Source: Escherichia coli (GTDB lineage Bacteria; Pseudomonadota; Gammaproteobacteria; Enterobacterales; Enterobacteriaceae). From it: a DNA stretch of 64,000 bases. Of this stretch, positions 4,068-59,788 are shown piece after piece. A model generated the notes under the pieces. That model had not been told where the DNA came from. It saw only the letters and a program-made list of their open reading frames with translations, and did no database searches. Every line of letters starts with the position of its first letter. Position 1 is the first letter of the stretch. The translations under genes were made by a program, and so were the position numbers. The stretch lies in the NCBI RefSeq assembly GCF_003018255.1, contig NZ_CP027440.1; one strand, 5' to 3'.

Positions 4068-4862
4068 TTAGCGCAACATCTGCGGCAAATTCCCTTCTCC
4101 ATACAGGTGTAGTGCACCGACCGCGACCACATATCGCCCCGGCGGCATGGCGCGTAATTTGTCCCGCCAGGCGAGATTTCGCTGATGCATCAGCACATCG
4201 TACAGCGACTGACTGAACGTATTAGGCAGCGTTATTTCATTATTTTGTGGCGGTGTATTCAGCCACCAGCTCATCATTTGTTGCAGCAACCGTGCGTTGG
4301 TGTGCCAGTGGGTCAGCGTATCGTCCAGCAGCGCCAGTCCGTTGTCAGGGAGCTGGAGCAACATGGCAATCTGGTTTTCTGCCCCTTCCAGTTCAATCAC
4401 GGGTTTATGTTGTTGCTTCGCCGCCTGCAATAGCTGGTAATCGATACCGTATTCTGCCCGCAGCCCCAGTTTTTGTGCCTGCGTCGCCTGAAGAACCATC
4501 GCGATTTGCCACAGCGGTTGAGTAGAAAAGAGCGACGGAGAAATGCCCATCTCCTGGCTAATATGCTGCAGATTTTGGAGTTGCTCCTCGCTAATGCGCT
4601 CTTCCAGCGTCTCGCAGGCAGGCAAATTAGCAAAAGGCGTATCGCTGGTGGAAACATCCGCCTCGACGATCAGCGCATCGGCGTTTTTGAGCTTTTTGAG
4701 CAAACGGGTGGGCAGGGGAGCCATATCGTGGCTACCCATATGAATACTGCCAATCAGATGAAAATGGCGATTGCCGGGAAGAGAGATATCGATAGCAGGC
4801 CAGGTGTAATGATTACCGCGCAGCGCGGCCCAAAGCGTTTTTACCCGGTACAACAGATCCAT
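4068..4862 (-). CDS. ybaP: TraB/GumN-family protein
   Basis: 264 aa ORF, conserved position. Confidence 0.8.
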   Translation of the reverse strand: MDLLYRVKTLWAALRGNHYTWPAIDISLPGNRHFHLIGSIHMGSHDMAPLPTRLLKKLKNADALIVEADVSTSDTPFANLPACETLEERISEEQLQNLQHISQEMGISPSLFSTQPLWQIAMVLQATQAQKLGLRAEYGIDYQLLQAAKQQHKPVIELEGAENQIAMLLQLPDNGLALLDDTLTHWHTNARLLQQMMSWWLNTPPQNNEITLPNTFSQSLYDVLMHQRNLAWRDKLRAMPPGRYVVAVGALHLYGEGNLPQMLR

Positions 4863-43542: not shown

Positions 43543-44326
43543 TTAAATCTCTACGTCGCGGTTGCAATCTTTCGAGTAAATATAGCTGAACGCTTCACCA
43601 CGCCCTACGCCATAACCAGCCTGTAAAGAATAAGCGCCCATAAAGATGTAATCGCCTTTTTTCACCGGGATCCAGTTATTGTCGAGGTTATAAACCCCCT
43701 GACCGGAAAGAATATAGGCACCGTGTTCCTGAACGTGGGTTTCGATATAACCGTGGCTGGCACCTGGTGCAAAAGAGAGGATATGCATGTTCATATCAAA
43801 ACCTAACTCTTTGGGCAGAAAATCCAGCAGAATAACATCGTCCATGCCTTCATAATGAATGCGTTCCAGTTCGCTGGCATTGCCAGAAACCAGCCACGGC
43901 GCATGACCTTCTACCGGAATATAGCGACGCTTATATAAAAAGATTTGGCTGTCTTCGGCCTGGGCGTTAACAAACGTCATTAAGGAGCCTGGCGGGCAAT
44001 AAAGATAGCCACCTTCACTTAAGGTAAATGTTTTCCCTTCGGCTTTGGCAGTGATATTTCCAGAGATCACATACAGGAACGTTTCAATGCCTTCGCCACC
44101 GAAGCCCTGTTGGTTGCCGCCGTTTTGATGCAGTGTGACCAGATAATCAACAAAAGAGGCACCCAGCTTTGGCGTGGAGAGGATTGTCGCGTCACAATTT
44201 TCAAAGCCCGGAATAATATTTTTTACCAGACCGTCTGGTGTTAACAGTGCGAAATTACCGTGTTTCACAATCGCACGGTTAGCCAGTAAATCTTCGCGGT
44301 AACCGGTGACGTTATTTAAATATCCC
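43543..44326 (-). pseudogene. allE: S-ureidoglycine aminohydrolase gene separated from its start codon/RBS by island insertion
   Basis: cupin ORF; in-frame upstream codons ..KGYLNNVTGYREDLLANRAIVKHG.. preceded by a stop and no ATG; matching GGAG-N8-ATGGGATAT found 14 kb away at 58513-58530. Confidence 0.75.
44320..44326. repeat. attL core (ATATCCC)
   Basis: identical 7-mer at 58513-58519; outer flanks reconstitute intact allC-allE junction. Confidence 0.6.
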
Positions 44327-44453
44327 TTTTATCAAATAGTGTTTTTTGCTGTTTCATAATGTTTCAGGTCGTTCATTATGTTTTTGATTATCAACGGATT
44401 TGCCATTTTTCTTGTTTCAGCTTGTTTCACGTTGTAGCGCTTTGTGCAACGAT

Positions 44454-44479
44454 CGGTGTAGTTAATGGTGTAGTCAATT
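44454..44479 (+). repeat. 26-bp direct repeat cggtgtagttaatggtgtagtcaatt, left copy (candidate Int arm-type site)
   Basis: perfect copy at 58414-58439; flanked by TGTTTCA-like motif clusters. Confidence 0.55.
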
Positions 44480-44500
44480 GTGATGACCGGAATCAAAATT

Positions 44501-45730
44501 ATGAGCAGAGCACTTAACAAACTGAGTGACACACAGCTAAGGAAAATCAACGGCACACCCGCCCAAAAAACAGCCTTTCTTAATGACGGTGGAAACCTGA
44601 GCGTCAGGCATTCAACCAGCGGCCTTTTAACCTGGTATTTCACATACAGGGCCGGAACGGGAAGAGGGACACAACCTGAACGCGTTAAGCTGGGAAATTA
44701 TCCCGATCTGAGCCTGAAAGCAGCCAGGGAAAAAGCCGCACAGTGTCGCGCATGGCTGGCTGAGGGGAAAAATCCACGCTATGAACTGAATTACACCATG
44801 CAGGAAGCGTTAAAGCCTGCAACGGTTGGCGATGCGCTCACCTACTGGCTTGAGTCGTACGCAAAGGAAAAGCGCACAGATTACGAATCACTGAAAAGCC
44901 GGATCAATAAAAACATAATCATCAAAATTGGTGCTATGCCGCTGGATAAATGCGAGCTACGGCACTGGCTGGCCTGTTTTGATCAGGTGGCAAAGCGAAC
45001 ACCTGTTACTGCCGGATTCTTGCTACAGACATGCAAACAGGCGCTTAAATTCTGCCGTAGGCGGCGCTATGCAATCAGCAACGTTCTGGACGATCTGAAC
45101 GTGGCGGACGTTGGGAAAAAACCGGATATAAGCGAACGTGTCTTAAGCACCAAAGAACTGGGCGAGTTATTGCAGGCGCTGGATAAAAAAATATTTTCTC
45201 CTTACTACGTCGCGTTAATCCGCCTCCTGATTGTCTTCGGAGCCAGGACGGTAGAACTGAGGTTATCGGAGATCAGCGAGTGGGATTTTACCGAAATGCT
45301 ATGGACCGTTCCGAAGGAGCACAGCAAAACGAAGGTTGCAATATTCCGGCCCATACCGGAAGCGATCCTGCCGTTCGTCACGCGGCTGGTGGAGCAGAAC
45401 AGGCACACGGGCTTATTACTGGGGGAAGTGAAACAGGAGGCTAGCGTATCGCAGTACGGCAGATTAGCGCACAGGAGGCTAAAACACCTTCAATGGTCAT
45501 TGCATGACATCCGGCGCACCTTTACAACGATGCTGAATGATTTGGGCGTGGATCCTCACGTCGTGGAGCAGCTTACAGGTCATCAGATGCCAGGGATGCA
45601 ACGAGTCTATAACCACTCCCGTTATCTCGATGCGAAACGTGATGCGCTGGATATGTGGACGGAGCGGTTAGGGATACTGGCGGGAGCACATGAAAACGTA
45701 ACCACGCTACCAGTAACCAGAATAAAATAA
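44501..45730 (+). CDS. int: tyrosine integrase (P4-like)
   Basis: P4-type N-terminal arm-binding region and C-terminal catalytic residues (..HDIRRTF.., ..RVYNHSRY..); adjacent to attL; start taken at MSRALNKL (ORF opens at 44480). Confidence 0.9.
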   Translation: MSRALNKLSDTQLRKINGTPAQKTAFLNDGGNLSVRHSTSGLLTWYFTYRAGTGRGTQPERVKLGNYPDLSLKAAREKAAQCRAWLAEGKNPRYELNYTMQEALKPATVGDALTYWLESYAKEKRTDYESLKSRINKNIIIKIGAMPLDKCELRHWLACFDQVAKRTPVTAGFLLQTCKQALKFCRRRRYAISNVLDDLNVADVGKKPDISERVLSTKELGELLQALDKKIFSPYYVALIRLLIVFGARTVELRLSEISEWDFTEMLWTVPKEHSKTKVAIFRPIPEAILPFVTRLVEQNRHTGLLLGEVKQEASVSQYGRLAHRRLKHLQWSLHDIRRTFTTMLNDLGVDPHVVEQLTGHQMPGMQRVYNHSRYLDAKRDALDMWTERLGILAGAHENVTTLPVTRIK

Positions 45731-46094
45731 TTTTTTTCGTGTTTTTTCAGTATGCGCATACTGGATAAGTGCACAGATACAACGTGAAACAATGTGCAAC
45801 AACGTGACACAATCATGAACAAGAGGCCAAAAAGAATACAGATTTATAAGTTACTGATTTTTATTGCTCAACTGGTTTTTTATACATTAGCGAATTACGC
45901 GTTAAAGCGTGCGAAAAAAGGCATAAAACAAGATTTTATGCCTTTGTATTAACATGAATTTAAATGATTTTATCCTGATTATTCCTCTTTCTGTAAACCA
46001 TACGACATCAACATTTGCCATTCACCACACTAGCGGGAACAATACGACACAATAAGACACCTGATGACTCTTTAAGAAACGAAAGGGGGCAATA

Positions 46095-46283
46095 GTGTTA
46101 AGCACTGATCGGTTTATACGTGAAAAAGAATGCGAAAAGCTAACAGGCCTTAGCCGCTCATGCCGCTACCGCCTGGAAAAGGCCGGACAATTCCCATCAC
46201 GTCGTAAACTTGGCGGGCGTTCTGTTGGCTGGTCTTTATCTGAGGTTTTGGCCTGGAAGGATAGCTGCAAGGCAGTTCACTAA
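46095..46283 (+). CDS. alpA: AlpA-family transcriptional regulator / excisionase-like
   Basis: 62 aa, GTG start after SD aaggggg; ..KLTGLSRSCRYRLEKAGQFP..LGGRSVGWSLSEVLAW.. fits AlpA/MerR-type HTH. Confidence 0.7.
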   Translation: MLSTDRFIREKECEKLTGLSRSCRYRLEKAGQFPSRRKLGGRSVGWSLSEVLAWKDSCKAVH

Positions 46284-46526
46284 AAAGACTGGCGGCACAC
46301 AGTCGCCACACATCCACTAATACAGAGATATAACTATGAAGATTGAATATGCGCCCGAACGTGGGCGGGGATTCGTTCGCCCTGGTGAAACTGAAAAACA
46401 ACAAAATTGGGGTTTTTCAGGCATAAAAAAAGCGGCCCCGATATGGAGCCGCCTTTCTGAACAATTAACCTGCTGCGCCTTATGTGTATGTGATCCCAAA
46501 CATAAGCACGGGGATGATAGCCGCTA

Positions 46527-46724
46527 TCAGGCTGGTGGGCAATTCCTGTTTTGTCCGTATTGCGCCGCCATTTTCGCTCGTTCAGAGCGCGAATATTTTT
46601 TTAGAAACTCATCAAGGACAAAAGCGCATGGTGCGAATCTTTCTGATTCATGCTCGAGCGCCATATTTTCGTGCTCTCTGTTCGTTTTTTGCGATGGTGT
46701 ATCGCTTGATTCTTTGTTGGTCAT
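46527..46724 (-). CDS. hypothetical small protein downstream of Arc-like gene
   Basis: 65 aa hydrophilic ORF, same strand as Arc-like gene. Confidence 0.2.
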   Translation of the reverse strand: MTNKESSDTPSQKTNREHENMALEHESERFAPCAFVLDEFLKKYSRSERAKMAAQYGQNRNCPPA

Positions 46725-46781
46725 TGTGTGTACCTGTAAAGCAATGCGCCGTAGTACCTCACACCACGGCGCTGATAGTTT

Positions 46782-46973
46782 TTATCCTTTGGGGTCTATG
46801 CCGCGCCGCTTTAGTTCAGTGCGCCCCAACTCTTTAAGCCAGTTGGCTAGGCTTATGCCGTCGCTCTGTGCTTCTTTGTCGAATTGCTCTTTTAGCTCTG
46901 GAGAAATTCGCATTCTGAATTGTGGGGATTGCCCGTCCCCTTTAGGGCTTTTATCGCGTTTGATTGTTGACAA
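46782..46973 (-). CDS. Arc/MetJ-type ribbon-helix-helix protein (candidate repressor), antisense to neighbouring island genes
   Basis: ..SPQFRMRISPELKEQFDKEAQSDGISLANWLKELGRTEL.. matches Arc N-terminal strand plus helices; start codon uncertain (TTG with SD aggtgg). Confidence 0.4.
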   Translation of the reverse strand: MSTIKRDKSPKGDGQSPQFRMRISPELKEQFDKEAQSDGISLANWLKELGRTELKRRGIDPKG

Positions 46974-47107
46974 GTGGCCACCTATTAAATTAGCCTTTCT
47001 ATTGTTAGGTGGCCACCTTAACACAAGAGCACTTAAAAAAGCAAAGCCCCGCAAGTGCCATTACCACTCGCAGGGCTTCTAACCAACAACGTAAACGAGG
47101 AGCCGTT

Positions 47108-47308
47108 ATGGTTGCCGTAAATCATATACCACACCTTGTACACACACAAACTGCCTTTGTGTGGCGTTTTCTGGCCCTGAGTGCCGGAGAATCTCAAATC
47201 ATCCACGTAACCGCCTGGACGGAACGCGAAGCGCGTAACCGTTGCCCGTCCGGTTGTGTTGCTGTATTTGCCGCCCGTATTCGTCAGGGGGAAACCTATG
47301 CACAATAA
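47108..47308 (+). CDS. small protein resembling Icd-like cell-division inhibitors of P4-type satellites
   Basis: 66 aa from ATG with SD aggag; ..FVWRFLALSAGESQIIHVTAWTEREARNRCP.. (recalled family resemblance). Confidence 0.4.
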   Translation: MVAVNHIPHLVHTQTAFVWRFLALSAGESQIIHVTAWTEREARNRCPSGCVAVFAARIRQGETYAQ

Positions 47309-47528
47309 AACCACACCGGACGCAGCAGAAGAAGCAATGCAAATACTGATACGTGCGCTCGTTGATGTTACCCACATGGTGGAGATTATGGAGAGAAAAT
47401 CACAGTCGGAGCACGACAAAAGAAAACTTAAAACAATAAAAATAATTGCCAAAAACTCGCTGATAAAAGTTACAGACATCCTTAATGAGGACATTAAAAG
47501 AATAAGGGAGAAAATTTGTGATGCATAA
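47298..47528 (+). CDS. hypothetical protein (island accessory)
   Basis: 76 aa, AT-rich, SD ggggga, overlaps neighbours. Confidence 0.4.
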   Translation: MHNKTTPDAAEEAMQILIRALVDVTHMVEIMERKSQSEHDKRKLKTIKIIAKNSLIKVTDILNEDIKRIREKICDA

Positions 47529-47748
47529 AATCCCTTTTGAAGTATTAATCCACTCTGAAAACGCATTAATTAAAGCACGCGAAATGAATGCGTTGTTAAT
47601 TAAATTAATTGAAGTGCCGGAAGGTGGTGAGGAATCAGGTGTATTAATGTTTGCAGCCATTCAGACATTACTATCGCCTGTTATTGATGAACTGGATAAG
47701 GCAATGGCAATTCACGAAAATAATAACGCGCCCCACACCGGAGAATAA
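47518..47748 (+). CDS. hypothetical protein (island accessory)
   Basis: 76 aa, AT-rich, start overlaps previous stop. Confidence 0.4.
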   Translation: MMHKIPFEVLIHSENALIKAREMNALLIKLIEVPEGGEESGVLMFAAIQTLLSPVIDELDKAMAIHENNNAPHTGE

Positions 47749-47753
47749 AAATA

Positions 47754-48053
47754 ATGAAACTTAAATATTCTGGCTTAACTGCCAGTGGCAAAACTCGCAC
47801 TAAATTCATGCGCGGTGATATTTACCGCGACCAGTACGGCGGCACGGTAATGATTAAGGGCGTGGAGGAACGGCGCGTAACTTACCGCCGTGAAGGTTAC
47901 GAATATGATTGCGTGATGCCCGTTTATCAGTTCGACCGTGATTTTTCTCTGGTGCAGGCAGCGCAACGCAGCAAGCCCACCAGCAGGGAGAAAGCACGCG
48001 CCAATATTCAGGAAATAAAAAAGATGCTTAACGTATTCAGGGGTAAAAAATGA
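47754..48053 (+). CDS. hypothetical protein (island accessory)
   Basis: 99 aa basic protein, stop overlaps primase start. Confidence 0.4.
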   Translation: MKLKYSGLTASGKTRTKFMRGDIYRDQYGGTVMIKGVEERRVTYRREGYEYDCVMPVYQFDRDFSLVQAAQRSKPTSREKARANIQEIKKMLNVFRGKK

Positions 48054-49804
48054 AACTGGCACCGAACGTAAAACAGCAGTCACGCGGCATAAAACACAAA
48101 GAAACAGAAGTCATTATTTTTGCGGGTAGTGATGCCTGGTCACACGCAAAACAATGGCAGGAACATGACGCGCGTATGGCCGGAGATAATGAGCCTCCTG
48201 TGTGGCTTGGGGAGCAGCAGTTATCAGAACTGGATAAGCTGCAAATTGTGCCGGAAGGCAGAAAATCCGTGCGCATATTCAGGGCCGGATATCTTGCACC
48301 AGTAATGATAAAGGCGATTGGTCAAAAGCTGGCGGCGGCTGGTGTACAGGATGCAAATTTTTATCCTGAGGGTATGCACGGCAAGGAGGTGCAGAACTGG
48401 CGCGAATACCTGGCCCGTGAACGCCAGAATCTTTCTGATGGTCTGGTCATTGAGCTTCCGGTAAAGCAAAAGGCGCAACTTTCGCAGATGGCGGACAGTG
48501 AGCGCGCGCAGCTGCTTGCCGATCGCTTTGATGGCGTTTGCGTACATCCTGAAAGTGAAATTGTTCACGTATGGCGCGGCGGGGTATGGTGTCCGGTCAG
48601 CACAATGGAACTTAGCCGCGAAATGGTGGCGATCTATTCAGAGCACAGGGCCACTTTCAGCAAGCGCGTAATCAATAACGCCGTGGAAGCGTTAAAAGTT
48701 ATTGCCGAACCAATGGGCGAGCCGTCCGGCGATTTGCTGCCGTTCGCCAATGGTGCGCTTGACCTGAAAACGGGGGAATTTTCCCCGCACACGCCGGAGA
48801 ACTGGATCACCACGCACAACGGCATTGAGTACACGCCACCAGCACCAGGGGAGAATATCCGCGACAACGCGCCAAACTTTCATAAATGGCTTGAGCACGC
48901 AGCCGGAAAAGACCCGCGCAAGATGATGCGTATATGTGCCGCGCTGTACATGATTATGGCGAACCGGTACGACTGGCAGATGTTTATTGAGGCCACCGGA
49001 GACGGCGGGAGCGGTAAAAGTACATTCACACACATAGCCAGCCTTCTGGCAGGGAAACAGAACACGGTAAGCGCTGAAATGACATCGCTTGATGATGCTG
49101 GTGGACGTGCGCAGGTTGTCGGGAGTCGTCTTATCGTCCTGGCTGACCAGCCGAAATATACAGGCGAAGGAACGGGCATCAAGAAAATCACGGGCGGCGA
49201 CCCCGTGGAAATTAACCCGAAATATGAGAAGCGTTTTACGGCGGTAATCAGGGCGGTGGTGCTGGCTACCAACAATAACCCGATGATATTCACCGAACGG
49301 GCCGGAGGTGTGTCACGTCGTCGCGTAATTTTCCGTTTCGACAATATCGTCAGTGAGGCCGAAAAAGACAGGGAGCTACCGGAAAAGATTGCGGCTGAAA
49401 TCCCTGTCATTATCCGCCGATTGCTGGCGAACTTTACCGACCCTGAGAAGGCACGGGCTTTACTACTGGAACAGCGTGACGGTGATGAAGCTCTGGCAAT
49501 AAAGCAACAGACGGATCCGGTTATTGAGTTTTGCCAGTTCCTGAATTTTCTGGAGGAAGCACGCGGCCTGATGATGGGCGGCGGTGGCGATTCAGTGAAG
49601 TACACGACCAGGAACAGCCTTTACCGCGTCTATCTGGCGTTTATGGCATACGCAGGCAGGAGCAAACCGCTAAACGTGGCTGAGTTCAGCAAGGCCATGA
49701 AGCCAGCGGCGAAAGTTTACGGGCATGAATATATTACGCGAAAAGTTAAGGGAGTAACGCAGACCAACGCAATTACAACAGACGATTGCGACGCGTTTTT
49801 ATAA
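48050..49804 (+). CDS. primase-helicase replication protein (P4 alpha-like C-terminal NTPase)
   Basis: 584 aa, Walker A GDGGSGKST, Walker B-like LIVLAD. Confidence 0.85.
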   Translation: MKLAPNVKQQSRGIKHKETEVIIFAGSDAWSHAKQWQEHDARMAGDNEPPVWLGEQQLSELDKLQIVPEGRKSVRIFRAGYLAPVMIKAIGQKLAAAGVQDANFYPEGMHGKEVQNWREYLARERQNLSDGLVIELPVKQKAQLSQMADSERAQLLADRFDGVCVHPESEIVHVWRGGVWCPVSTMELSREMVAIYSEHRATFSKRVINNAVEALKVIAEPMGEPSGDLLPFANGALDLKTGEFSPHTPENWITTHNGIEYTPPAPGENIRDNAPNFHKWLEHAAGKDPRKMMRICAALYMIMANRYDWQMFIEATGDGGSGKSTFTHIASLLAGKQNTVSAEMTSLDDAGGRAQVVGSRLIVLADQPKYTGEGTGIKKITGGDPVEINPKYEKRFTAVIRAVVLATNNNPMIFTERAGGVSRRRVIFRFDNIVSEAEKDRELPEKIAAEIPVIIRRLLANFTDPEKARALLLEQRDGDEALAIKQQTDPVIEFCQFLNFLEEARGLMMGGGGDSVKYTTRNSLYRVYLAFMAYAGRSKPLNVAEFSKAMKPAAKVYGHEYITRKVKGVTQTNAITTDDCDAFL

Positions 49805-49809
49805 TTTTT

Positions 49810-50050
49810 TGTAAAAGCCCTCTACCCCATCTACCTGAATGAAGTAAACGCATATTATTCAACATGATAAGTGGGTAGAGGGCTAGGTAGAAGGCTAATA
49901 AAAGCTCTCTACCCCTTCTACCTGATTTTATCAGTTTCAGGTAGCAGGGTAGACGGCAGGTAGAGGAGCCCAAAAAGCTATCTACCCGCTGAAAGCCGCG
50001 CCATTACTGACATGATGAGCATTCGGGTAGATGGGTAGAGGGGGGGGAGG
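49810..50050. repeat. iteron cluster, putative island origin of replication
   Basis: at least 10 copies of GGTAGA/TCTACC-containing units in both orientations, e.g. cctctaccccatctacctga, ctctctaccccttctacctga, gggtagatgggtagaggg. Confidence 0.6.
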
Positions 50051-50082
50051 CACAACTAAAAACTTTTTAAACGAGGGGGGGG
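50040..50082 (+). repeat. two G8 homopolymer tracts just upstream of ORF 50090
   Basis: G8 at 50040-50047 and 50075-50082, the second 7 nt before the ATG. Confidence 0.4.
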
Positions 50083-50089
50083 AAAATAA

Positions 50090-50404
50090 ATGCGCATACA
50101 TCAAAATCACTTAACAAATATGCCAGCCGAAAACATGAATCAGGGGCGACAAATGACCAAAATTCGCAGAGACAGAACACAGGCAAAATATAAAGCGTTA
50201 GACATGACAGAGCTTTCCTTAAAGGTGGCAATCAAAGCGATAGACCACCACACACGGGCAGGATACGCGAAGGAACATCCCGACCTGATAAGCGCATTCA
50301 TGACCACGGCGGCGGCAAACTTTGCCACGTTGACAGAACGTGAGATTGCCGAAGCGGAACAGGTAACAACCATCAACGTTAAAACCGGAGAGGTGGAATC
50401 ATGA
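50090..50404 (+). CDS. hypothetical protein (island accessory)
   Basis: 104 aa ORF, stop overlaps SSB-like start. Confidence 0.35.
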   Translation: MRIHQNHLTNMPAENMNQGRQMTKIRRDRTQAKYKALDMTELSLKVAIKAIDHHTRAGYAKEHPDLISAFMTTAAANFATLTEREIAEAEQVTTINVKTGEVES

Positions 50405-50811
50405 CAGCACAGATAGCCGCTTACGGGCGGCTGGTGGACGACCCGCAGGTAAAACAGACCAGCAAGGGCACACCGATGACGCTGGTTCGTATGGCGGTAT
50501 CGCTGCCATGCAGCCAGGCACATGACGGACAGGCGACGTTATGGTTATCGGTTATCGCATTTGGCAAACAGGCCGATTTCCTGGCTAAACATCAAAAAGG
50601 CGATGTTGCCAGCGTATCCGGCACGATGCAGGTAAGCCAGTGGACCGGACAGAACGGGGAAACGCGGCGGGGGTATCAGGTTATTGCAGACAGCGTAATC
50701 AGTGCCCGCGCGGCACGTCCAGGCGGGAACAGACGCAAAACCACAGGCACACAGGGTAATCAGCCACCAGCGGGAGGCGATGACCCTTACGGTGACGGTA
50801 TTCCGTTCTGA
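50401..50811 (+). CDS. SSB-like single-stranded DNA-binding protein
   Basis: 136 aa, OB-fold-like N-terminus, Gly-rich linker, acidic tail ..DDPYGDGIPF like SSB DDDIPF. Confidence 0.55.
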   Translation: MTAQIAAYGRLVDDPQVKQTSKGTPMTLVRMAVSLPCSQAHDGQATLWLSVIAFGKQADFLAKHQKGDVASVSGTMQVSQWTGQNGETRRGYQVIADSVISARAARPGGNRRKTTGTQGNQPPAGGDDPYGDGIPF

Positions 50812-50821
50812 GGGGGTGACG

Positions 50822-51070
50822 ATGGTACATGACCGCATAGCGGAGGAACTCGAGGCAAAAGGCTTTTACCGGAGGGCGTCGGCGCGATGGGGTGAAGTCA
50901 TGCAACTGGTGGAGACAGACAAGGAACGGCATCAGGTTACGATGCGACGGCTGGAATGTTCCAGGAAGGCACAGAGGCCACCGGAGCCGCCAACGGAGAA
51001 CTACGCAGACCTGAGAAATGCAGTAAATCGCACTTACGCAGACATGGGGCTGAGCAAATTAGCAGAGTAG
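50822..51070 (+). CDS. PerC-family-like transcriptional regulator
   Basis: 82 aa from internal ATG with SD gaggggg; ..LEAKGFYRRASARWGEVM..TDKERHQVTMRRLEC.. (recalled PerC-like pattern). Confidence 0.4.
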   Translation: MVHDRIAEELEAKGFYRRASARWGEVMQLVETDKERHQVTMRRLECSRKAQRPPEPPTENYADLRNAVNRTYADMGLSKLAE

Positions 51071-51141
51071 GAATATCAGAACCACACCACGCAGCCGGAG
51101 CAATCCGGCTTTTTGTTATTTTTTGTAAATTATTTGTTCGT

Positions 51142-51158
51142 GGTTGTTCCACGTTGTT
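51142..51158 (+). promoter_or_regulatory. copy of TTGTT(C/T)CACGTTGT motif upstream of capsid operon
   Basis: gttgttccacgttgttcac; similar motifs near 44423, 45782 (inverted) and 58385. Confidence 0.35.
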
Positions 51159-51374
51159 CACTGAGCGGATCGGCATATTTTACCCGAACTGAATCATGAT
51201 TATTCTCGCCCGTGGTGCCAGGACGCTGGGGCCACTTTCCCGCCTGTTAATGTGCTCGCCAATATTCATTACCAGGCGGGAAAACGATCGGTGCGATTGC
51301 TGATTTCCTTATGAAAAACGGTTGAGTGTTTGCCGCGTCCTGGAGTTCCTTACTTAACCCCAGGACTTTTTTTT

Positions 51375-52532
51375 ATGCCGAGAATAATCGAATTACGCCA
51401 GCAGAAAACCGCCATTAAAAATCAGATGCGCGACATGCTGGAGAACGCTGAAAAAGAAAACCGCAGTCTTAACGATGCTGAGGGCGCAAAATTTGACGAA
51501 TTACGCGCTAAAGCTGAATCCCTCGATAAAGACATTTCCCGCCTTGAAGCCATTGCAGACGAAGAGCGCAGCAAGCCAGGTAAAAGCAGCCAGACCACTG
51601 ACCCCGCAGAACTACGCAGCTACATTCTGACAGGTGAAACCCGCGCATTAAGTACAGGCGTTCCCGCTGATGGTGGTTATACCGTTATCCCCGAACTGAA
51701 CACCGAAATCATGCGAATGCTGGCGGATGAATCCACCATGCGCCGCATCTGTACCGTGAAAAAAATCAGCAGCAACGAGTTTAAGCAGCTTGTTTCCGCT
51801 GGCGGTGCGACCGTTAACCACGGTGAAGAGGGTAAGGCACGCGAACAGACCAGCACCCCGCAGATTAACGAGGTGAGCATTAAGCTGTATCCGGTCTATG
51901 CGTACCCGCGCACCACACAGGAAATCGTGGATTTTTCCGATGTGGACATCCTTTCATGGCTGACGGGTGAGATTGGCGACACCTTCACGGAAACCGAAGA
52001 AAGCGATCTGGTTGTGGGCGACGGTGACAAAAAAGCAAAAGGTTTTTTATCCGTACCCCGTGCAGAGAAGAACGACAAAGAGCGTGATTTTGGTACGTTG
52101 CAGGTAATTAAACCTTCCGAATCTCTGGCGTGGACATCTGCGGACCCGCTGATCGACCTGAAATTTGCATTACGTAAAAAATACCGCAAAAACGCGGTCT
52201 GGGTGGTTAACTCCACGACGGCGGCAAAACTCCAGAAGGTGAAGAACGCGAACGGTGATTACATCTGGCGTGACCGTTTACAGGCGGGTGATCCTGATAC
52301 GTTGCTGGGCCTTCCGGTCGAATATCTGGAGTTTATGCCTGATAACGTTATTGCCCTGGGTGACTTCAAACGCGGTTACTACATTGTTGATCACGAAACA
52401 GGTGTTCGCACCAGACCGGACAACCTCACAGAGCCGGGCTTCATCAAAATTTTCACGCAGAAATATTTAGGCGGTGGCGTGGTGGATTCGAACGCGATCA
52501 AGATTCTGGAACTGCCACAGGACGACGATTAA
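51375..52532 (+). CDS. major capsid protein, HK97 fold, coiled-coil N-terminal delta domain
   Basis: coiled-coil N-terminus then HK97-like capsid core; start taken at MPRIIELRQQK. Confidence 0.85.
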   Translation: MPRIIELRQQKTAIKNQMRDMLENAEKENRSLNDAEGAKFDELRAKAESLDKDISRLEAIADEERSKPGKSSQTTDPAELRSYILTGETRALSTGVPADGGYTVIPELNTEIMRMLADESTMRRICTVKKISSNEFKQLVSAGGATVNHGEEGKAREQTSTPQINEVSIKLYPVYAYPRTTQEIVDFSDVDILSWLTGEIGDTFTETEESDLVVGDGDKKAKGFLSVPRAEKNDKERDFGTLQVIKPSESLAWTSADPLIDLKFALRKKYRKNAVWVVNSTTAAKLQKVKNANGDYIWRDRLQAGDPDTLLGLPVEYLEFMPDNVIALGDFKRGYYIVDHETGVRTRPDNLTEPGFIKIFTQKYLGGGVVDSNAIKILELPQDDD

Positions 52533-52571
52533 CAGCATACAGAAGGGGCTTAAAAGCCCCTTTAGTGTTTT

Positions 52572-53144
52572 ATGGGTGAAAAAATTATGAAGAGTATGGA
52601 AATCCGGTCATCGGAAATCACCACCAGCGGAGCCGGTACGCTGACGGGCTACGTTGTTCGCTGGGATAAGCTTTCAGAACTGTTATGGGGTGAGTTTTAC
52701 GAAAAATTCCAGCGGGGGGCGTTTACTGAATGGCTTGCGGCGGGTAATGACGTTCGCGGCCTGTATGAGCATGACCACAGCATGTTACTGGGGCGCACCC
52801 GTTCCGGCACGCTGAAACTGGAAGAGGACGAAACAGGGTTACGCTTTGAACTGACCCCACCGGATACCAGTACAGGGCGCGACGTTATCGAACTGGTTAA
52901 GCGTGGGGACATCTCGGGGATGAGCTTTGGCTTTCGCTCCCGTAAGGATGTATGGGATACCACAACAGATCCATGCGTGCGCACCGTGCTGGTGGCGGAA
53001 CTGTACGAAATTACCGTTACATCGGTACCGGCTTACCCCGATTCCGGCGTGGAGCTGGCCCGCCGTTCCCTGTATGAGCAGCACCCCGAAAAAATGCCGC
53101 GTGCGGATAATCGCCGCTGGTGGGTGGATTTAGCGGGGGTGTGA
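52572..53144 (+). CDS. prohead protease (HK97 gp4 family)
   Basis: 190 aa, ..LYEHDHSMLLGRT.. and ..ISGMSFGF.. Confidence 0.8.
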   Translation: MGEKIMKSMEIRSSEITTSGAGTLTGYVVRWDKLSELLWGEFYEKFQRGAFTEWLAAGNDVRGLYEHDHSMLLGRTRSGTLKLEEDETGLRFELTPPDTSTGRDVIELVKRGDISGMSFGFRSRKDVWDTTTDPCVRTVLVAELYEITVTSVPAYPDSGVELARRSLYEQHPEKMPRADNRRWWVDLAGV

Positions 53145-53145
53145 T

Positions 53146-54357
53146 ATGTGGCCTTTCAGAAGAAAAAAAGAGCAGCGCAGCATGACGCTTGATAAGTTTA
53201 TGGCGCTGGCTGGCACATCGAACACGGGGGCGGGTGAGTACGTATCATCGGGGACAGCGGAATCACTGCCCGCCGTCATGAACGCCGTGACGGTCATCTC
53301 TGAGGCGGTGGCTACCATGCCGTGTTACCTGTACCTGGTACGCAATGAGAAGGGGAAGGAGGCCCGCGAGTGGCTTGATTCTCATCCGGTCGATCACATC
53401 CTCAACGAGCGCCCGAACGCGTGGCAGACTCCCTACCAGTTTAAGCGAATGATGATCCGCCACTGCCTGTTAAACGGTAATGCTTATGCGGTGATTCAGT
53501 GGGGGCGTGATGGTTTTCCGGTGGCTTTACATCCTTACCCGCCGCAGTCGGTGAACGTGGAGCAGACAGGTGATCATAACTGGCGCTACTGCATCACTGA
53601 CGCCTACACCGGAAACACCCGCAACTATTTACCGTGGGAGGTTCTCCACCTTCGTTACTCCACGGATGACGGTTTTATGGGGCGCTCACCTGTAACCATC
53701 TGCCGCGAATCGCTGGGGCTTGGGCTGGCCCAACAACGCCACGGCGCGAGCGTGATGCGTGATGGCATGATGGCGGCAGGGGTTATCACGTCAGGCGAAT
53801 GGCTGGACGGCGTGAAGGGCAAACAGGCATTAGCCGCACTGGAACGCTACAAAGGGGCCAGAAACGCCGGAAAAACGCCCATCCTTGAAGGGGGGATGAG
53901 CTATCAGCAGCTGGGCATGAGTAATCAGGATGCCGAATGGCTGGCCTCCCGTCGCTTCACCATTGAAGACATCGCCCGAATGTTCAACGTCTCGCCGATT
54001 TTTTTGCAGGAATACAGCAACAGCACCTACAGCAACTTCAGCGAGGCAAGCCGCGCATTTCTCACCATGACGATGCGCCCGTGGCTGGCGAACTTTGAGC
54101 AGCAGATAAAAAACGCCCTGCTGGTGGCCTCGCCTGTACCTGGTATCCGGTATCAGGTGGAGTTTGACAGCGCGGACCTGTTACGGGCCACACCTGGCGA
54201 ACGCTTTGCCACCTATGAACGCGGCATCAAATCCGGCGTTATGTGCCCGAACGAAGCCCGCGAACGTGAAGGGCTGTCCCCGCGTGATGGTGGTGATGAG
54301 TTCAGCCAGGCATGGAAACAGGAAGTAAAAATCAGCGAGGGAGAAAAACCGGAATGA
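53146..54357 (+). CDS. portal protein (HK97 family)
   Basis: 403 aa, follows protease, precedes head-completion genes. Confidence 0.8.
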   Translation: MWPFRRKKEQRSMTLDKFMALAGTSNTGAGEYVSSGTAESLPAVMNAVTVISEAVATMPCYLYLVRNEKGKEAREWLDSHPVDHILNERPNAWQTPYQFKRMMIRHCLLNGNAYAVIQWGRDGFPVALHPYPPQSVNVEQTGDHNWRYCITDAYTGNTRNYLPWEVLHLRYSTDDGFMGRSPVTICRESLGLGLAQQRHGASVMRDGMMAAGVITSGEWLDGVKGKQALAALERYKGARNAGKTPILEGGMSYQQLGMSNQDAEWLASRRFTIEDIARMFNVSPIFLQEYSNSTYSNFSEASRAFLTMTMRPWLANFEQQIKNALLVASPVPGIRYQVEFDSADLLRATPGERFATYERGIKSGVMCPNEAREREGLSPRDGGDEFSQAWKQEVKISEGEKPE

Positions 54358-54692
54358 ACATAGGGCGACTGCGTGACAGGATAACGATTCAGACCCTGAA
54401 ACAGACCAGGGATATAACCGGCGAAATACTCGAAACGTGGGAGGACGGTCACACACTCTGGGCAAGCGTGAACATGGTCAGCAGCAAGGAGGCCATTTCA
54501 TCGGGCGCAGAGCTGGCGATTGGTACCGTAAGGATCTGGATACGGTACCGGAAGGACATCAACGCCACCTGCCGGATAAAGGTCAGTACGGGGCCGCTGG
54601 CGGGGCGTGTACTGAATATCATCGGGCAGCCGCTGCCGGATGCCGCCAGGACACGCCTTGAAATTCTTTGTCGTGAGGGCGCGGAAAAATGA
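54354..54692 (+). CDS. head-tail adaptor / head closure protein
   Basis: start MNIGRLRDRITIQ overlaps portal stop; ..IWIRYR.DI.. pattern. Confidence 0.65.
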   Translation: MNIGRLRDRITIQTLKQTRDITGEILETWEDGHTLWASVNMVSSKEAISSGAELAIGTVRIWIRYRKDINATCRIKVSTGPLAGRVLNIIGQPLPDAARTRLEILCREGAEK

Positions 54693-54985
54693 CAGAAGAA
54701 CTTATCACCCTGGAAGAAGTGAAACTCCATTGCCGCATCGATGGCGACGATGAAGACCAGTTAATCAGCGGATACATTGCCGCATCGCTTGAGGCGTGCC
54801 AGATACACATAGGCAGGCGCTTTGATGACGGGCTGGAGTTCACGCCAGCCATAAAGATTGGCTGCATGATGTTTATCGCTCACCTGTATGAAAATCGCCA
54901 GATTGTCGCGGATAACGCAAAAACACGCGTACCCATGACGATAGGCGCACTCTGGACGGCTTACCGTGATGTGGGGGTGTACTGA
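54689..54985 (+). CDS. gp6-like head-tail connector protein
   Basis: 98 aa; ..ITLEEVKLHCRIDGDDEDQLISGYIAAS.. Confidence 0.65.
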   Translation: MTEELITLEEVKLHCRIDGDDEDQLISGYIAASLEACQIHIGRRFDDGLEFTPAIKIGCMMFIAHLYENRQIVADNAKTRVPMTIGALWTAYRDVGVY

Positions 54986-55425
54986 TGCCGTGGCAACCAT
55001 TAAGACGATGCACAGAACCAGGCTGTAACAGGCGCGTTAAATCCGGCAAGTGTGAGGAGCACAGGCGGGCGGCATGGCGTGCAGAGGATGCCAGACGAGG
55101 ACACCGCCGCGCGCGTGGATATTCCAGACAGTGGGACAAATACCGCGCCATGTATCTGAGTAAAAACCCGTTATGCGTGCGATGCCTTGAGAAGGGGATA
55201 TATACGCCCGCCGTGGTGGTGGATCACATTATCCCGATTAATGGCGGTGATGATGTTCTCTTCTGGCCCGAATGGAACCATCAACCATTGTGCCAGGCGT
55301 GTCATAACCAGAAAACGAAATGGCTTGATCCGGCAACAAAAAGCAAGCGTGCCGCAGGTGGATTTCGTGAAGAGGAAGAACGGGCTGCTAACCGCAATAA
55401 CTGGATGTATGACGCTGATGAATGA
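54985..55425 (+). CDS. HNH endonuclease (packaging-associated)
   Basis: Cys-rich zinc motifs and ..VVDHIIPINGG..NHQPLCQACHNQKT.. HNH core, next to terminase. Confidence 0.85.
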   Translation: MPWQPLRRCTEPGCNRRVKSGKCEEHRRAAWRAEDARRGHRRARGYSRQWDKYRAMYLSKNPLCVRCLEKGIYTPAVVVDHIIPINGGDDVLFWPEWNHQPLCQACHNQKTKWLDPATKSKRAAGGFREEEERAANRNNWMYDADE

Positions 55426-55591
55426 GCGGGAACAAAACCGCCTTATCCGTGGACTTATAAGGCAGCGTGACGCATGGAAGACACAGGAAACAGGGCATAA
55501 AGATAAAGCGTCAGGACGCGCAGAACGCATCACAGCGAAGCGATTAACCGACCGTGACCGCGAGGTTATGGAATGTTTCCGCAATCGCTGA
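55409..55591 (+). CDS. possible small ORF overlapping HNH 3' end
   Basis: 60 aa basic peptide (MTLMNEREQNRLIRGL...), no recognisable domain. Confidence 0.2.
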   Translation: MTLMNEREQNRLIRGLIRQRDAWKTQETGHKDKASGRAERITAKRLTDRDREVMECFRNR

Positions 55592-55713
55592 TGAGGCTGT
55601 ATGACGGGGTGGGGGGCGTTTTCAGGACAAACCCGACCCCGCCGGGCACCGAACGCCTCCTCAAATTTTTATGCACGGGAATTTTTTGAAAAATAATCTG
55701 GCGAAAAATAAGC

Positions 55714-56070
55714 ATGGCAAGACCACCGAAAGCCCCCGCCTACCTGGATGATATCGCCGTGAAGCAGTGGCGGGAAAAATCTAGGCAGCTTGCGGAACGG
55801 GGAGACCTGACCCCCGCCGACTGGAGCAATCTGGAACTGTATTGTGTCAACTACTCCATTTACCGGAAAGCCGTTGCAGACCTTGCGGCGCGCGGGTTCA
55901 GCATTGTTAACAGTCAGGGCGGCGAGAGCAGAAACCCCGCATTAAGCGCAAAATCCGACGCTGAAAGAGTGATGATAAAAATGGCCTCTTTGCTCGGTTT
56001 TGACCCGATAAGCCGCCGTAAAAATCCACCGGAAACAGAAGAAGAGGACGAGCTTGACCGCCTGGAATAA
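55714..56070 (+). CDS. terminase small subunit (P27-like)
   Basis: 118 aa; ..DLTPADWSNLELYCVNYSIY..LLGFDPISRRK.. fits P27-family TerS. Confidence 0.7.
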   Translation: MARPPKAPAYLDDIAVKQWREKSRQLAERGDLTPADWSNLELYCVNYSIYRKAVADLAARGFSIVNSQGGESRNPALSAKSDAERVMIKMASLLGFDPISRRKNPPETEEEDELDRLE

Positions 56071-57715
56071 GTACGCAGAAGACGTAAAAACGGGCAAAAT
56101 TCCGGCCTGTAAACGGCTGAAACAGGCCGTTAAACGGTACTTTTCGGACCTTGAAAGCCCCCTTTACACGTTCGATCGTGAGGTTGTGGAGCGGTTTATT
56201 GCCTTTTCCAGGGTGTGCCCGCACGTAAAAGGGCCGATGCGTGGCAGACCCATTGAGCTGGAGCCGTGGCAGCAGTTCGCCTTTGCGTGCATCCTCGGCT
56301 TTAAGGTTAAGGCCACCGGACGGCGCAAATACACGAGCGCCTTTATCGAAGTGCCGCGCAAAAATGCGAAATCCACGACCGCCGCGATTCTGGCTAACTG
56401 GTTTCTGATTATGGAGAACGGGCAGCAGGATATTTACACCGCAGCGGTGAGCCGTGACCAGGCGCGGATCGTTTTTGATGATGCGCGTCAGATGTGCCTT
56501 TTATCCCGACCGTTACGCAGGCGGGTGAATATTCAGGCCCACAAGGTGATGCACCCGAAAAGCAACAGCCTGTTAAAGCCGCTGGCAGCAAAAGCGGCAA
56601 CCATCGAGGGAACAAACCCCAGCCTTTCCATCGTGGACGAATACCACCTACACCCCGATAACGGCGTTTATTCCGCGCTTGAGCTGGGGATGGGCGCACG
56701 TCCCGAAGGGCTGTTATTTGCCATTACCACATCGGGCAGTAACGTCGTTTCAACCTGTAAACAGCACTATGATTATTGCTGCCAGATCCTGGACGGCGAA
56801 GAGGTCAACGATTCAATTTTTGTGCTGATTTACGAGCTGGACGACGAAAACGAGGTTGATGATCCGGCGATGTGGATAAAGGCTAACCCTAACATCGATG
56901 TTTCCGTGGATCGTGAAAAACTGGCCTCAACCATCCAGAAAGCGCGGGGTATTCCGTCGCAATGGGTGGAGATGATGACAAAGCGATTTAATATCTGGTG
57001 CCAGGGGGCTACCCCGTGGATGGGTAACGGCGCATGGGCTGAGTGTGCCGGAACGTTCACGGAGGAAGATTTACACGGGCAGGAGTGTTACGCGGGGCTG
57101 GACTTATCATCAACCAGCGATATTTCCAGCGTGTGCTATGCCTTTCCGGTCGGTAAAAATATCATGCTGGTTTCCCGTCATTATCTGCCGGAGTTCCAGC
57201 TACAGAACCCCGCCAATAAAAACCGCGCTGTCTATCGCCAGTGGGCTAAAGCGGGCTGGATACGCACAACGCCAGGTGACTGCATTGATTACGACCGGAT
57301 CAGAGATGACATCATGCAGGATGCGGAGAAATTTAATATCAGGCTGGTGGGCTTTGATACGTGGAACGCCACGCATCTCAGGACGCAATTACAGGGGGCT
57401 GGTTTTGAGGTGGAGCCGTTCCCGCAAACCTACCTCAGATTCAGTCCGGCGGCGAAATCGTTCGAAGTTTTTGTTAACCGCAGGGTGATTGTGCATCGTG
57501 GCGATCCGGTGTTGTCCTGGTCGATGAGTAACGTCGTGATGCAGAGTGACGCGAACGCCAATATCAAGCCGAACAAGAAAAAATCACCGAACAAGATAGA
57601 CCCGAGCGTAGCGGCGCTGATGGCGTTTGGTACATTCCAGGCAGAGCATGAGGATTTTGCTTTTGATATAAGCGACAGCCACCGCCAGAAACTGGAAGAA
57701 TTTAGCGGGGTGTAA
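56054..57715 (+). CDS. terminase large subunit
   Basis: 553 aa, ATPase N-terminus and nuclease C-terminus, overlaps terS. Confidence 0.9.
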   Translation: MTAWNKYAEDVKTGKIPACKRLKQAVKRYFSDLESPLYTFDREVVERFIAFSRVCPHVKGPMRGRPIELEPWQQFAFACILGFKVKATGRRKYTSAFIEVPRKNAKSTTAAILANWFLIMENGQQDIYTAAVSRDQARIVFDDARQMCLLSRPLRRRVNIQAHKVMHPKSNSLLKPLAAKAATIEGTNPSLSIVDEYHLHPDNGVYSALELGMGARPEGLLFAITTSGSNVVSTCKQHYDYCCQILDGEEVNDSIFVLIYELDDENEVDDPAMWIKANPNIDVSVDREKLASTIQKARGIPSQWVEMMTKRFNIWCQGATPWMGNGAWAECAGTFTEEDLHGQECYAGLDLSSTSDISSVCYAFPVGKNIMLVSRHYLPEFQLQNPANKNRAVYRQWAKAGWIRTTPGDCIDYDRIRDDIMQDAEKFNIRLVGFDTWNATHLRTQLQGAGFEVEPFPQTYLRFSPAAKSFEVFVNRRVIVHRGDPVLSWSMSNVVMQSDANANIKPNKKKSPNKIDPSVAALMAFGTFQAEHEDFAFDISDSHRQKLEEFSGV

Positions 57716-57728
57716 TGAGGTCAGCAGC

Positions 57729-58010
57729 ATGACAGAAGCCGAAATACTGCGATTAATCCGCCGCGTCTCTGGAATCAGCCAGCAGGCTGACGAACAGACC
57801 ACGCAGCCGGACAGCGTGACAGCCGAAAATTATGCGCGTGTTGTTGCTGAGGTGATGCGCCGTGATGGTATCCAGCTTAATGATGCGGATATGCGCGACA
57901 TACGGATCCGCGTTCTTGAAATGCTGGCCTACAATCGCCGTGTAGAGATGTACAGGGAGAAAGAGAAAATTACGTACAACTGGAAGAAGCCGGAGCGGTT
58001 ACGGCGGTAA
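57729..58010 (+). CDS. hypothetical protein, last gene of island
   Basis: 93 aa ORF right after terL. Confidence 0.35.
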   Translation: MTEAEILRLIRRVSGISQQADEQTTQPDSVTAENYARVVAEVMRRDGIQLNDADMRDIRIRVLEMLAYNRRVEMYREKEKITYNWKKPERLRR

Positions 58011-58413
58011 CGTGTTGATTTAAAGGCGGCTCAATTTTGAGCCTCGTAACTGGTTGATATTTCCGGCAACCTCAATTTGAGGAGAGCGGAAACATCATCC
58101 CTCACATTCTGAATGGTCATAATGACCACGCAGGCCATCGAGGCAACCATAGCGATCATCGTTACGGTTGGAGCTTTCCGCCATTGGTGGAAAAGGTGCA
58201 CATCTGGATCATCATTACGGTGATCAAGGGTATGTAAAACCCACCAGCCTGATTAAAGGTTAACCGGAAAAAAAATCCGGTAGCCCCGTTATGGGGATCC
58301 CCATATCGACATTAACGCCCCTCATGAATTGGTGCGCTTCCCCCTGGAAAGATTACCCGCCTGTATATTTCTTGTGTCTATTTGTTCCACGTTGTTTCAT
58401 ACAGTGCACCGAA

Positions 58414-58439
58414 CGGTGTAGTTAATGGTGTAGTCAATT
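58414..58439 (+). repeat. 26-bp direct repeat, right copy (candidate Int arm-type site)
   Basis: identical to 44454-44479. Confidence 0.55.
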
Positions 58440-58512
58440 TGCGATTTTTGGCACTTTTTGTAGTGCGGGTTATTTAATTAAATCAATGTGTTATTGAAAA
58501 TAAGTTATAGAT

Positions 58513-58531: not shown

Positions 58532-59767
58532 TTATTTCTGCCAGGCAAGTTGATAAAGCATGAGTGCCAACGTTTTGACCCCTTCGGCAAGGTCGGTAAT
58601 ATTGGTGCGTTCCGCCGGGTTATGGCTGATCCCGTTGATGCTGGGAATGAAAATCATGCAGGTCGGCACGCGAGGCGCGAAAATTTGCGCGTCGTGCCCG
58701 GCACCACTGTGCATTACCCGGTAGTTCTGTTTTTCACTTTCACACAATTCTGTCAGGGTGGCGACCAGCTCCTTATTCATCGGCACGGGTTCTTCGTCCA
58801 TCCATAAATCGATATCAATACCAATGTCCATTTCATCGCAAATCGCCCGCATGTCGTTTTCTAACTGCTGGGTGAAATCGCGCAGCACGGCAGCGTCGGT
58901 ATGACGACAATCAATGGTGAACGTGGTTTTACCCGGTACCACATTCACCGTATTCGGACGCGGCTCCACCTTGCCAAAGGTAAGCACCAGCGGGTCGCCC
59001 ATCTTTTTCGCTTTTTCGATCGACTGATGGCAAATGCGACTGAAAGCGTAAACCGTATCACGACGATAACCCATCGGCGTGGTGCCTGCATGGTTTGATT
59101 CGCCGTTCAGCGTCACCGTATAACGACGCTGCCCGACAATTGCATTCACCACGCCAATTGACTGCCCATTACTTTCCAGCACACAGCCCTGTTCGATATG
59201 CAGTTCGACAAAGGCTTTAATATCCTGACGCGGAGTTAGTGGGGCGTTCGGCAGAGTAAATCCGCAAGCCTTCATCGCATCGACAAAACTATTTCCTTTG
59301 GCATCACAGATATTCCGCACGTCGTCAGGATTCGCCAGCCCAAAGATATTTTTACTGCCCCAGAAGACATACGGGAAGCGGCTGCCTTCTTCTTCTGCCA
59401 TCGCCACCACTTCGACCGTACGTAACGGCGCGCCGTATTGCGTTTTCAGCCAGTCAATTGCCAGCCACGCCGCCAGCGCACCGAATTGCCCGTCGAGGTT
59501 ACCGCCGTTAACCACGGTATCGATATGCGAACCGCTCAGAACCACTTCCTGTGGATATTCGGTGCCACTCAGGCGACCGTATAAATTCCCCACTTCATCG
59601 AAACGTGTTTCCAGCCCGCTTGCTGCCATTCTTTTTTTAAACTGCTGCTGAGTTTCCAGCCATTCCGGCGAATAAAGTAAACGGGTCATCCCACCCGCTG
59701 GGTCAGCGCCAAAAGAGGAAAGCCAGGGCAGCGTTTCTTCTATGGCTTGACGGAAATGTGTAATCAT
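58532..59767 (-). CDS. allC: allantoate amidohydrolase
   Basis: M20-family peptidase-like; start moved to MITHFRQ giving 411 aa. Confidence 0.9.
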   Translation of the reverse strand: MITHFRQAIEETLPWLSSFGADPAGGMTRLLYSPEWLETQQQFKKRMAASGLETRFDEVGNLYGRLSGTEYPQEVVLSGSHIDTVVNGGNLDGQFGALAAWLAIDWLKTQYGAPLRTVEVVAMAEEEGSRFPYVFWGSKNIFGLANPDDVRNICDAKGNSFVDAMKACGFTLPNAPLTPRQDIKAFVELHIEQGCVLESNGQSIGVVNAIVGQRRYTVTLNGESNHAGTTPMGYRRDTVYAFSRICHQSIEKAKKMGDPLVLTFGKVEPRPNTVNVVPGKTTFTIDCRHTDAAVLRDFTQQLENDMRAICDEMDIGIDIDLWMDEEPVPMNKELVATLTELCESEKQNYRVMHSGAGHDAQIFAPRVPTCMIFIPSINGISHNPAERTNITDLAEGVKTLALMLYQLAWQK

Positions 59768-59788
59768 AAGAAAGTCCTGTCTCAATAA

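Follow-up and report, generated by a model that had tools for sequence, protein, structure and literature searches.

A putative replication origin of inverted GGTAGA iterons directly 3' of the primase gene of a capsid-forming PICI in Escherichia coli

We analysed a 64,000-nucleotide stretch of E. coli DNA (hereafter the window) that carries a 14.0-kb island bounded by 26-bp direct repeats and inserted between allE and allC (Table 1). [quoted passage not shown] Gene content of this kind defines a capsid-forming PICI (cf-PICI), as for EcCIEDL933 (10.1101/2022.09.08.507074), and on its genes, att repeats and size the island is a cf-PICI. Its integrase is 89% identical to that of a related element, the closest relative in a complete genome (L001; 4986-5891 and 21119-21262), which sits in tqsA; because the insertion sites differ despite this identity, the comparison suggests either related integrases with different targets or a core sequence common to the two sites. 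Between alpA and pri-rep lie two sizeable ORFs whose ends overlap (46336-47082 on the plus strand and 47033-47566 on the minus strand); they are unlike the L001 genes in the same position and have no NCBIfam match, the only hit being phrog_4106 (unknown function) for the minus-strand ORF. The 501 bases around the repeat array described below were found in 525 of 5,426 complete E. coli genomes, chromosomal in every case.

Table 1. Features of the satellite and of the region between pri-rep and ORF 50090 (positions in the window; a dot marks features without a strand)
Feature	Position	Strand	Description
allE	43543-44268		flanking gene
attL	44454-44479	.	26-bp direct repeat CGGTGTAGTTAATGGTGTAGTCAATT, exact copy at 58414
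Tyrosine integrase	44480-45730	+	PHROG 1 integrase, E 5e-76
AlpA-like protein	46095-46283	+	excisionase/transcriptional regulator, PHROG 2790, E 1.7e-17
Pri-Rep	48050-49804	+	584 aa, P4-alpha-like primase / SF3 helicase / origin-binding protein; PHROG 864 DNA primase, E 7e-175
C-terminal winged-helix origin-binding domain (coding region)	49511-49777	+	residues 488-576 of Pri-Rep; 1KA8 match
Iteron array, proposed ori	49821-50039	.	11 GGTAGA/TCTACC and 1 GGTAGC, three inverted modules
Module 1	49821, 49830 (-); 49874, 49886 (+)	-/+	two TCTACC, 38-nt spacer of 29% GC, two GGTAGA
Module 2	49908, 49917 (-); 49940, 49948, 49959 (+)	-/+	two TCTACC, 17-nt spacer of 24% GC, the variant GGTAGC (49940) and two GGTAGA
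Module 3	49981 (-); 50026, 50034 (+)	-/+	one TCTACC, 39-nt spacer, two GGTAGA
AT-rich spacer, module 1	49836-49873	.	candidate melting site between two TCTACC and two GGTAGA
AT-rich spacer, module 2	49923-49939	.	contains the palindrome TGATTTTATCA
Non-iteron block within module 3	49988-50011	.	GCTGAAAGCCGCGCCATTACTGAC, GC-rich; nearly invariant in 60 distinct relatives
G run 1 (G8)	50040-50047	+	3' flank of the last iteron; lineage-specific expansion
Block between the G runs	50054-50074	.	AACTAAAAACTTTTTAAACGA, A/T-rich; 50058-50074 invariant or nearly so in 60 relatives
G run 2	50073-50082	+	within GAGGGGGGGG; Shine-Dalgarno of ORF 50090, expanded from ancestral GAGGGGG
ORF 50090	50090-50404	+	first gene after the proposed origin, 104 aa; PHROG 1231, unknown function
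SSB	50401-50811	+	PHROG 44, E 3e-38; TIGR00621 55.3 bits (cutoff 53.95)
Capsid and packaging module	51330-57715	+	major capsid, protease, portal, head closure, adaptor, HNH, TerS, TerL
attR	58414-58439	.	right copy of the 26-bp repeat
allC	58532-59785		flanking gene

Pri-Rep carries the Pfam domains D5_N, DUF5906 and Pox_D5 and scores 109.1 bits against the NCBIfam model of P4-family primases (TIGR01613, cutoff 108.7). Its residues 188-432 align with the helicase of SaPI Pri-Rep (7OLA, E 4e-15), and a phmmer search matched its C-terminal domain to the origin-binding domain of P4 alpha (PDB 1KA8, E 8.4e-6). From these matches it follows that the gene immediately upstream of the array codes for an initiator whose origin-binding domain can be recognised.

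The array begins 17 nt past the stop codon of pri-rep. The hexamer GGTAGA occurs 26 times on both strands of the window, and 11 of these exact copies fall within 219 bp, where 0.05 would be expected from the background rate (Poisson P(>=11) = 1.6e-22); a twelfth copy differs by one mismatch. Within the satellite, 11 of the 12 exact sites belong to the array, the remaining site in 44000-58500 being isolated. The original prediction of ten or more direct and inverted copies of a GGTAGA/TCTACC unit is thus borne out, and so are the composites of about 20 bp that it described: longer repeats of about 20-28 nt recur in the array at 75-93% identity, among them 49812-49838 against 49899-49925 (27 nt, 93%) and 49936-49963 against 50022-50049 (28 nt, 75%). 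Since its copies are inverted, the array folds as a single strand beyond shuffled controls (z = -4.9). Patterns for IHF, DnaA, Fis, GATC and 13-mer DUE elements gave no convincing site over the region, and Rfam searched at a permissive threshold returned chance-level matches only, all far under the gathering scores. Two minus-strand ORFs (49773-49973 and 49982-50110) were considered as genes and rejected on the single-base indels that they carry in relatives.

To assess conservation, we collected 80 loci with primases 88-100% identical to Pri-Rep and 37 loci sharing a 21-mer anchor, and computed mean column entropy over the 60 distinct intergenic sequences. Entropy was 0.25 in the hexamer cores against 0.71 elsewhere, in the spacers (Mann-Whitney P = 7e-11); nine of the 12 cores were essentially invariant among these 60 relatives, and the three bases on each side of them varied freely. 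The module 1 spacer differed in sequence between relatives but kept its AT-richness. Relatives with another allele of the downstream gene still have the array beside their primase gene. The selective conservation of the cores points to iterons that are under selection. The two non-iteron blocks listed in Table 1 are strongly conserved as well and may reflect a further function of the region. The GC-rich block gave no IHF, DnaA or GATC match, and the A/T-rich block, which is kept even in relatives with other iteron spacers and another downstream allele, gave no match to the sigma-70 consensus; this second block may serve in melting, priming or regulation. Two relatives (L023 and L028) keep primase and iterons and roughly the first 60 nt past the ATG, then run into unrelated sequence (TTTTTTGCGGGTCC...), which places a recombination breakpoint shortly after the start of the first downstream gene.

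Distant homologues were retrieved by searching 1.84 billion representative proteins (50% clusters), from which eight loci with primases 33-52% identical to Pri-Rep were fetched; a separate search with the full primase returned near-identical E. coli proteins only and no distant relatives. The comparison set was completed with vB_KppS-Ant (primase 41% identical) and P4. Six of the eight distant loci, and vB_KppS-Ant, have iteron arrays of their own just past the primase stop codon. Five of the arrays lie within about 300 nt of the stop, that of L117 reaches about 430 nt, the array of L118 is doubtful, and no clear iterons were seen in L119. The repeats occur in both orientations, and the clearest arrays have the same minus-minus/plus-plus layout as the window. 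In L116, all nine GTGACAA sites present in 7.8 kb fall 93-277 nt past the stop; L113 has eight copies of RGTAGA past the primase stop, and many copies of TGTTCACC/GGTGAACA follow the primase gene of vB_KppS-Ant. This last element (LR881103.1, listed as an Escherichia phage; L131) is a 16.5-kb induced satellite that encodes capsids, and its array (4280-4520) lies between the primase and capsid genes. What follows the arrays differs from locus to locus: Mrr/HsdM in L116, an acid phosphatase in L112 and a capsid gene in vB_KppS-Ant.

We then grouped 11 proteins of this set by their last 115 residues. P4 alpha, vB_KppS-Ant and L112 form a group whose repeats share the core GGTGAACA, vB_KppS-Ant having the C-terminal domain closest to P4 alpha among the primases compared; the window groups with L113 and L115 (core GTAG), and L114 with L116 (core CAGTG). 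Helicase-domain identity varies little, most of the compared proteins lying at about 49-55%. The type of iteron core thus appears to track similarity of the C-terminal domain, as iterons specific to their cognate initiator would, a match that is suggestive and not proof since it involves 11 proteins only.

[quoted passage not shown] The island resembles these elements in its int, alpA and pri-rep genes, its att repeats and its unidirectional transcription, and its initiator has a helicase core homologous to that of SaPI Pri-Rep. As in the origins of SaPIbov1, SaPI1 and EcCICFT073 (PMC6092414), short iteron sets border AT-rich stretches directly 3' of pri-rep, here with 12 hexamers and spacers of 29% and 24% GC, and in sequence terms the array appears to fit the published design on every feature examined. 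The differences, for EcCICFT073 judged from its published description, are the cf-PICI host, the GGTAGA iteron and the three inverted modules, against two sets around one AT-rich region in the known origins.

P4, the best-studied member of the protein family, has the same arrangement in its GenBank record, where crr is annotated directly 3' of alpha, with type-1 repeats in both orientations; the position of the array is therefore common to both. The two initiators are also related, Pri-Rep passing the P4-family primase model and sharing a homologous C-terminal winged helix, although P4 alpha is longer (777 aa) and Pri-Rep has a different N-terminal primase part. The P4 type-1 iteron is TGTTCACC with variants, a type carried by vB_KppS-Ant as well, in place of the GGTAGA found here. 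P4 has two elements, ori and crr, about 4.5 kb apart, and a 120-bp duplication, whereas the satellite has a single cluster with neither a second distant ori nor a duplication.

Two other roles were weighed for the array. It could be an operator or enhancer for a regulator (AlpA, the PerC-like protein or a host factor), instead of or besides an origin. The array does lie between two gene blocks, directly upstream of the ORF 50090-ssb-perC block, the two conserved non-iteron blocks could be regulatory, and initiators of iteron plasmids are often autoregulated through their own iterons. Scanning 49600-50300 for promoters and terminators, however, returned none, sigma-70-like promoters included; the array keeps with the primase while the downstream allele or the whole context changes (L116, L112, vB_KppS-Ant), and its iteron type tracks the C-terminal domain of Pri-Rep. 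Since it is the primase that the array accompanies, whatever lies downstream, we consider an operator very unlikely. The repeats could also be the packaging site (cos/pac, or small-terminase repeats) of the satellite's HNH-TerS-TerL proteins. Terminase recognition sites are sometimes arrays of short repeats. In support, cf-PICI DNA is packaged by the satellite's own terminase (10.1101/2022.09.08.507074). Against it, 5.7 kb separate the array from terS, L116, L112 and L113 have arrays without terminase or capsid genes in the DNA fetched around the primase, and the P4 counterpart, crr, is a replication element. Arrays in relatives that show no terminase in the fetched DNA, together with the distance to terS, make a packaging site extremely improbable.

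We conclude that the array is very probably the vegetative replication origin of the 14-kb cf-PICI. The original prediction of a PICI/SaPI-like origin placed 3' of its initiator gains support from the position, the inverted iterons, the AT-rich spacers and the selective conservation of the cores, and is further backed by the arrays of distant homologues and by the agreement between iteron type and C-terminal domain. In the cf-PICI literature that we searched, origin, iterons and primase are not mentioned, and a full-text literature search combining GGTAGA with iteron gave nothing relevant. Because the design fits and the literature is silent, we take the array as an uncharacterised example of an origin kind already known from PICIs, of which the GGTAGA origin of this cf-PICI would be a new case.

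A mechanism can be proposed from these elements. After induction, Pri-Rep of the satellite would recognise the GGTAGA hexamers via its C-terminal winged helix; we infer this binding from homology and from the co-variation in 11 proteins. Each spacer has TCTACC copies to its left and GGTAGA copies to its right, so that bound Pri-Rep would face inward and bracket the AT-rich spacers of modules 1 and 2, on which the SF3 helicase part would assemble, melting and unwinding the DNA. The primase part would lay the first primers, and the satellite SSB would coat the single strands. The G runs would not be core parts of this origin. An analogy is offered by the initiators of SV40 (large T antigen, which binds GAGGC pentamers) and papillomaviruses (E1), which also combine an SF3 helicase with an origin-binding domain and act at inverted short sites near AT-rich DNA. 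Their DNA-binding domain has no sequence relation to that of Pri-Rep and the hosts differ, so that the likeness is one of analogy only; as such it suggests a head-to-head assembly of Pri-Rep.

The window has only two runs of eight G, at 50040-50047 and 50075-50082, with 7 nt between the second and the ATG at 50090. Chance alone would give about this number in the window (shuffle mean 1.9), but both lie within 43 nt. The two runs had been described as following the array; both are there, but run 1 is the flank of the last iteron (GGGTAGA-GGGGGGGG) and not merely downstream of it. Run lengths were read in 30 informative relatives and the window from anchor scans, and in 7 more elements from metagenomes. 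Run 1 was G7 in 24 and G8 in 7 of the relatives and window taken together (metagenomes: G7 in 4, G8 in 3). Run 2 took the form G(n)TG in the relatives, with G5 in 13, G6 in 4, G7 in 8, G8 in 4 and G10 in 1, and in five metagenomic elements (G5 in 4, G7 in 1); it was uninterrupted as G8 in the window only and as G9 in 2 metagenomes. Lengths among close relatives thus range from 5 to 10 for run 2 and from 7 to 8 for run 1. Even between elements whose flanks are identical over 1,000 nt, run 2 (6, 7, 8 or 10) and run 1 (7 or 8) differed in length, so the G runs mutate far faster than the surrounding bases. The uninterrupted G8 of the window derives from G6-T-G by substitution of G for the T. In the two metagenome contigs (L123 and L126), on a different flanking haplotype, this substitution yields the uninterrupted G9, which points to recurrence or recombination.

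In the wider family, run 1 is absent from most members, which have GCAAGG or GGAGGTG at this place (GAGCAAGG or GAGGAGGTG), and run 2 is mostly a stable G5 or G6 (GAGGGGG), with GAGGG only in some; the long runs are therefore not a conserved part of the origin. Run 1 would have arisen recently, by expansion of the G-rich sequence that flanks the last iteron. Run 2 would grow on its 5' side with its 3' end fixed before the ATG, which would leave ribosome binding unaffected.

Run 2 belongs to the ribosome-binding region of ORF 50090. No Pfam or NCBIfam match was found for this ORF, and its function consequently gives no clue to a role of run 2. The ATG that lies 7-11 nt past run 2 is the first start in all alleles inspected and the sole possible start in several, which upholds the choice of ATG 50090 as the start codon; RefSeq/PGAP places the start at an internal ATG (50153), 63 nt later, for a product of 83 aa (compare L001, 12453-12704). 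The sequence GAGGGGGT(A/G) followed by the ATG is conserved across alleles of the family, and pairing of GGGGGUGA with the 16S 3' end can extend over eight bases. Given a first or only start at this position and a strong, conserved Shine-Dalgarno, the 104-aa form is probably the real product, and the RefSeq start would then be 63 nt too late.

We modelled the duplex with the 16S 3' end for G(n)TG forms from G5 to G11 and obtained -16.2 to -16.8 kcal/mol, with the same Shine-Dalgarno spacing (5 nt) and local accessibility (0.56-0.57) throughout; the window's own form, at -11.6 kcal/mol, is weaker than the G(n)TG forms and still strong. Effects that a long G run may have on mRNA structure, on ribosome pausing or on transcription are outside the model. 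Searching by hand for a -35/-10 pair spanning run 2 gave no acceptable pair at any run length.

These results bear on whether run 2, perhaps together with run 1, is a phase-variable switch for ORF 50090 and ssb/perC, acting on translation or transcription. The original prediction had proposed slipped-strand variation that changes translation initiation: the variation is real, and run 2 does lie in the ribosome-binding region of a gene with a supported start, at lengths of 5, 6, 7, 8, 9 and 10 that differ even between elements with identical 1-kb flanks, but the effect on initiation does not follow. Because the distance from the 3' end of run 2 to the ATG is constant, with modelled pairing and spacing unchanged (and accessibility equal from G5 to G11), a switch in translation is not supported by the model. 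Homopolymer contingency loci likewise have G runs of 7-10 that differ in length among otherwise identical elements; unlike them, run 2 lies outside any reading frame and not between promoter hexamers, its long form is not conserved in the family, and its length polymorphism comes without a placement that would alter modelled expression. Any neutral homopolymer of at least 7 would vary likewise. We therefore regard a phase-variable switch as unlikely, and near-neutral slippage is, on the model, the most likely account of the length variation.

The last two iterons and run 1 together also form a four-run G3 motif of G-quadruplex type on the plus strand (GGGTAGATGGGTAGAGGGGGGGG, 50025-50047). Perhaps with run 2, it could fold into a G-quadruplex, or stabilise an R-loop on the non-template strand, and so tune origin firing or read-through transcription in the manner of mitochondrial CSBII. 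The motif is canonical, and the run lengths are polymorphic. It occurs, however, only in the run-1 lineage; most relatives that share the primase and iterons lack it and have the sequences given above in place of run 1. Since these relatives do without it, the origin needs no G-quadruplex, and such a role for the motif is highly improbable. A combined role, in which both runs jointly tune the satellite, run 1 via presentation of the last iteron pair to Pri-Rep (for example by a G-quadruplex) and run 2 via the output of the ORF 50090-ssb-perC block, is decidedly doubtful; if true, it would mean subpopulations that differ in replication readiness or in interference with helper phages.

The G runs also carry a caution, that a polymorphic homopolymer beside a start codon is not necessarily a switch. 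For annotation, the comparison suggests a rule for the P4-alpha/Pri-Rep family, namely to search roughly 300 nt past the stop codon of the initiator gene for the origin. The relation between C-terminal type and repeat core (GGTGAACA, GTAG or CAGTG) suggests a specificity code that may be readable from sequence. cf-PICIs are widespread, build their own capsids and spread between species, and an origin at 49821-50039 with GGTAGA as its recognition unit would define a minimal replicon for their engineering, made up of pri-rep and about 285 bp.
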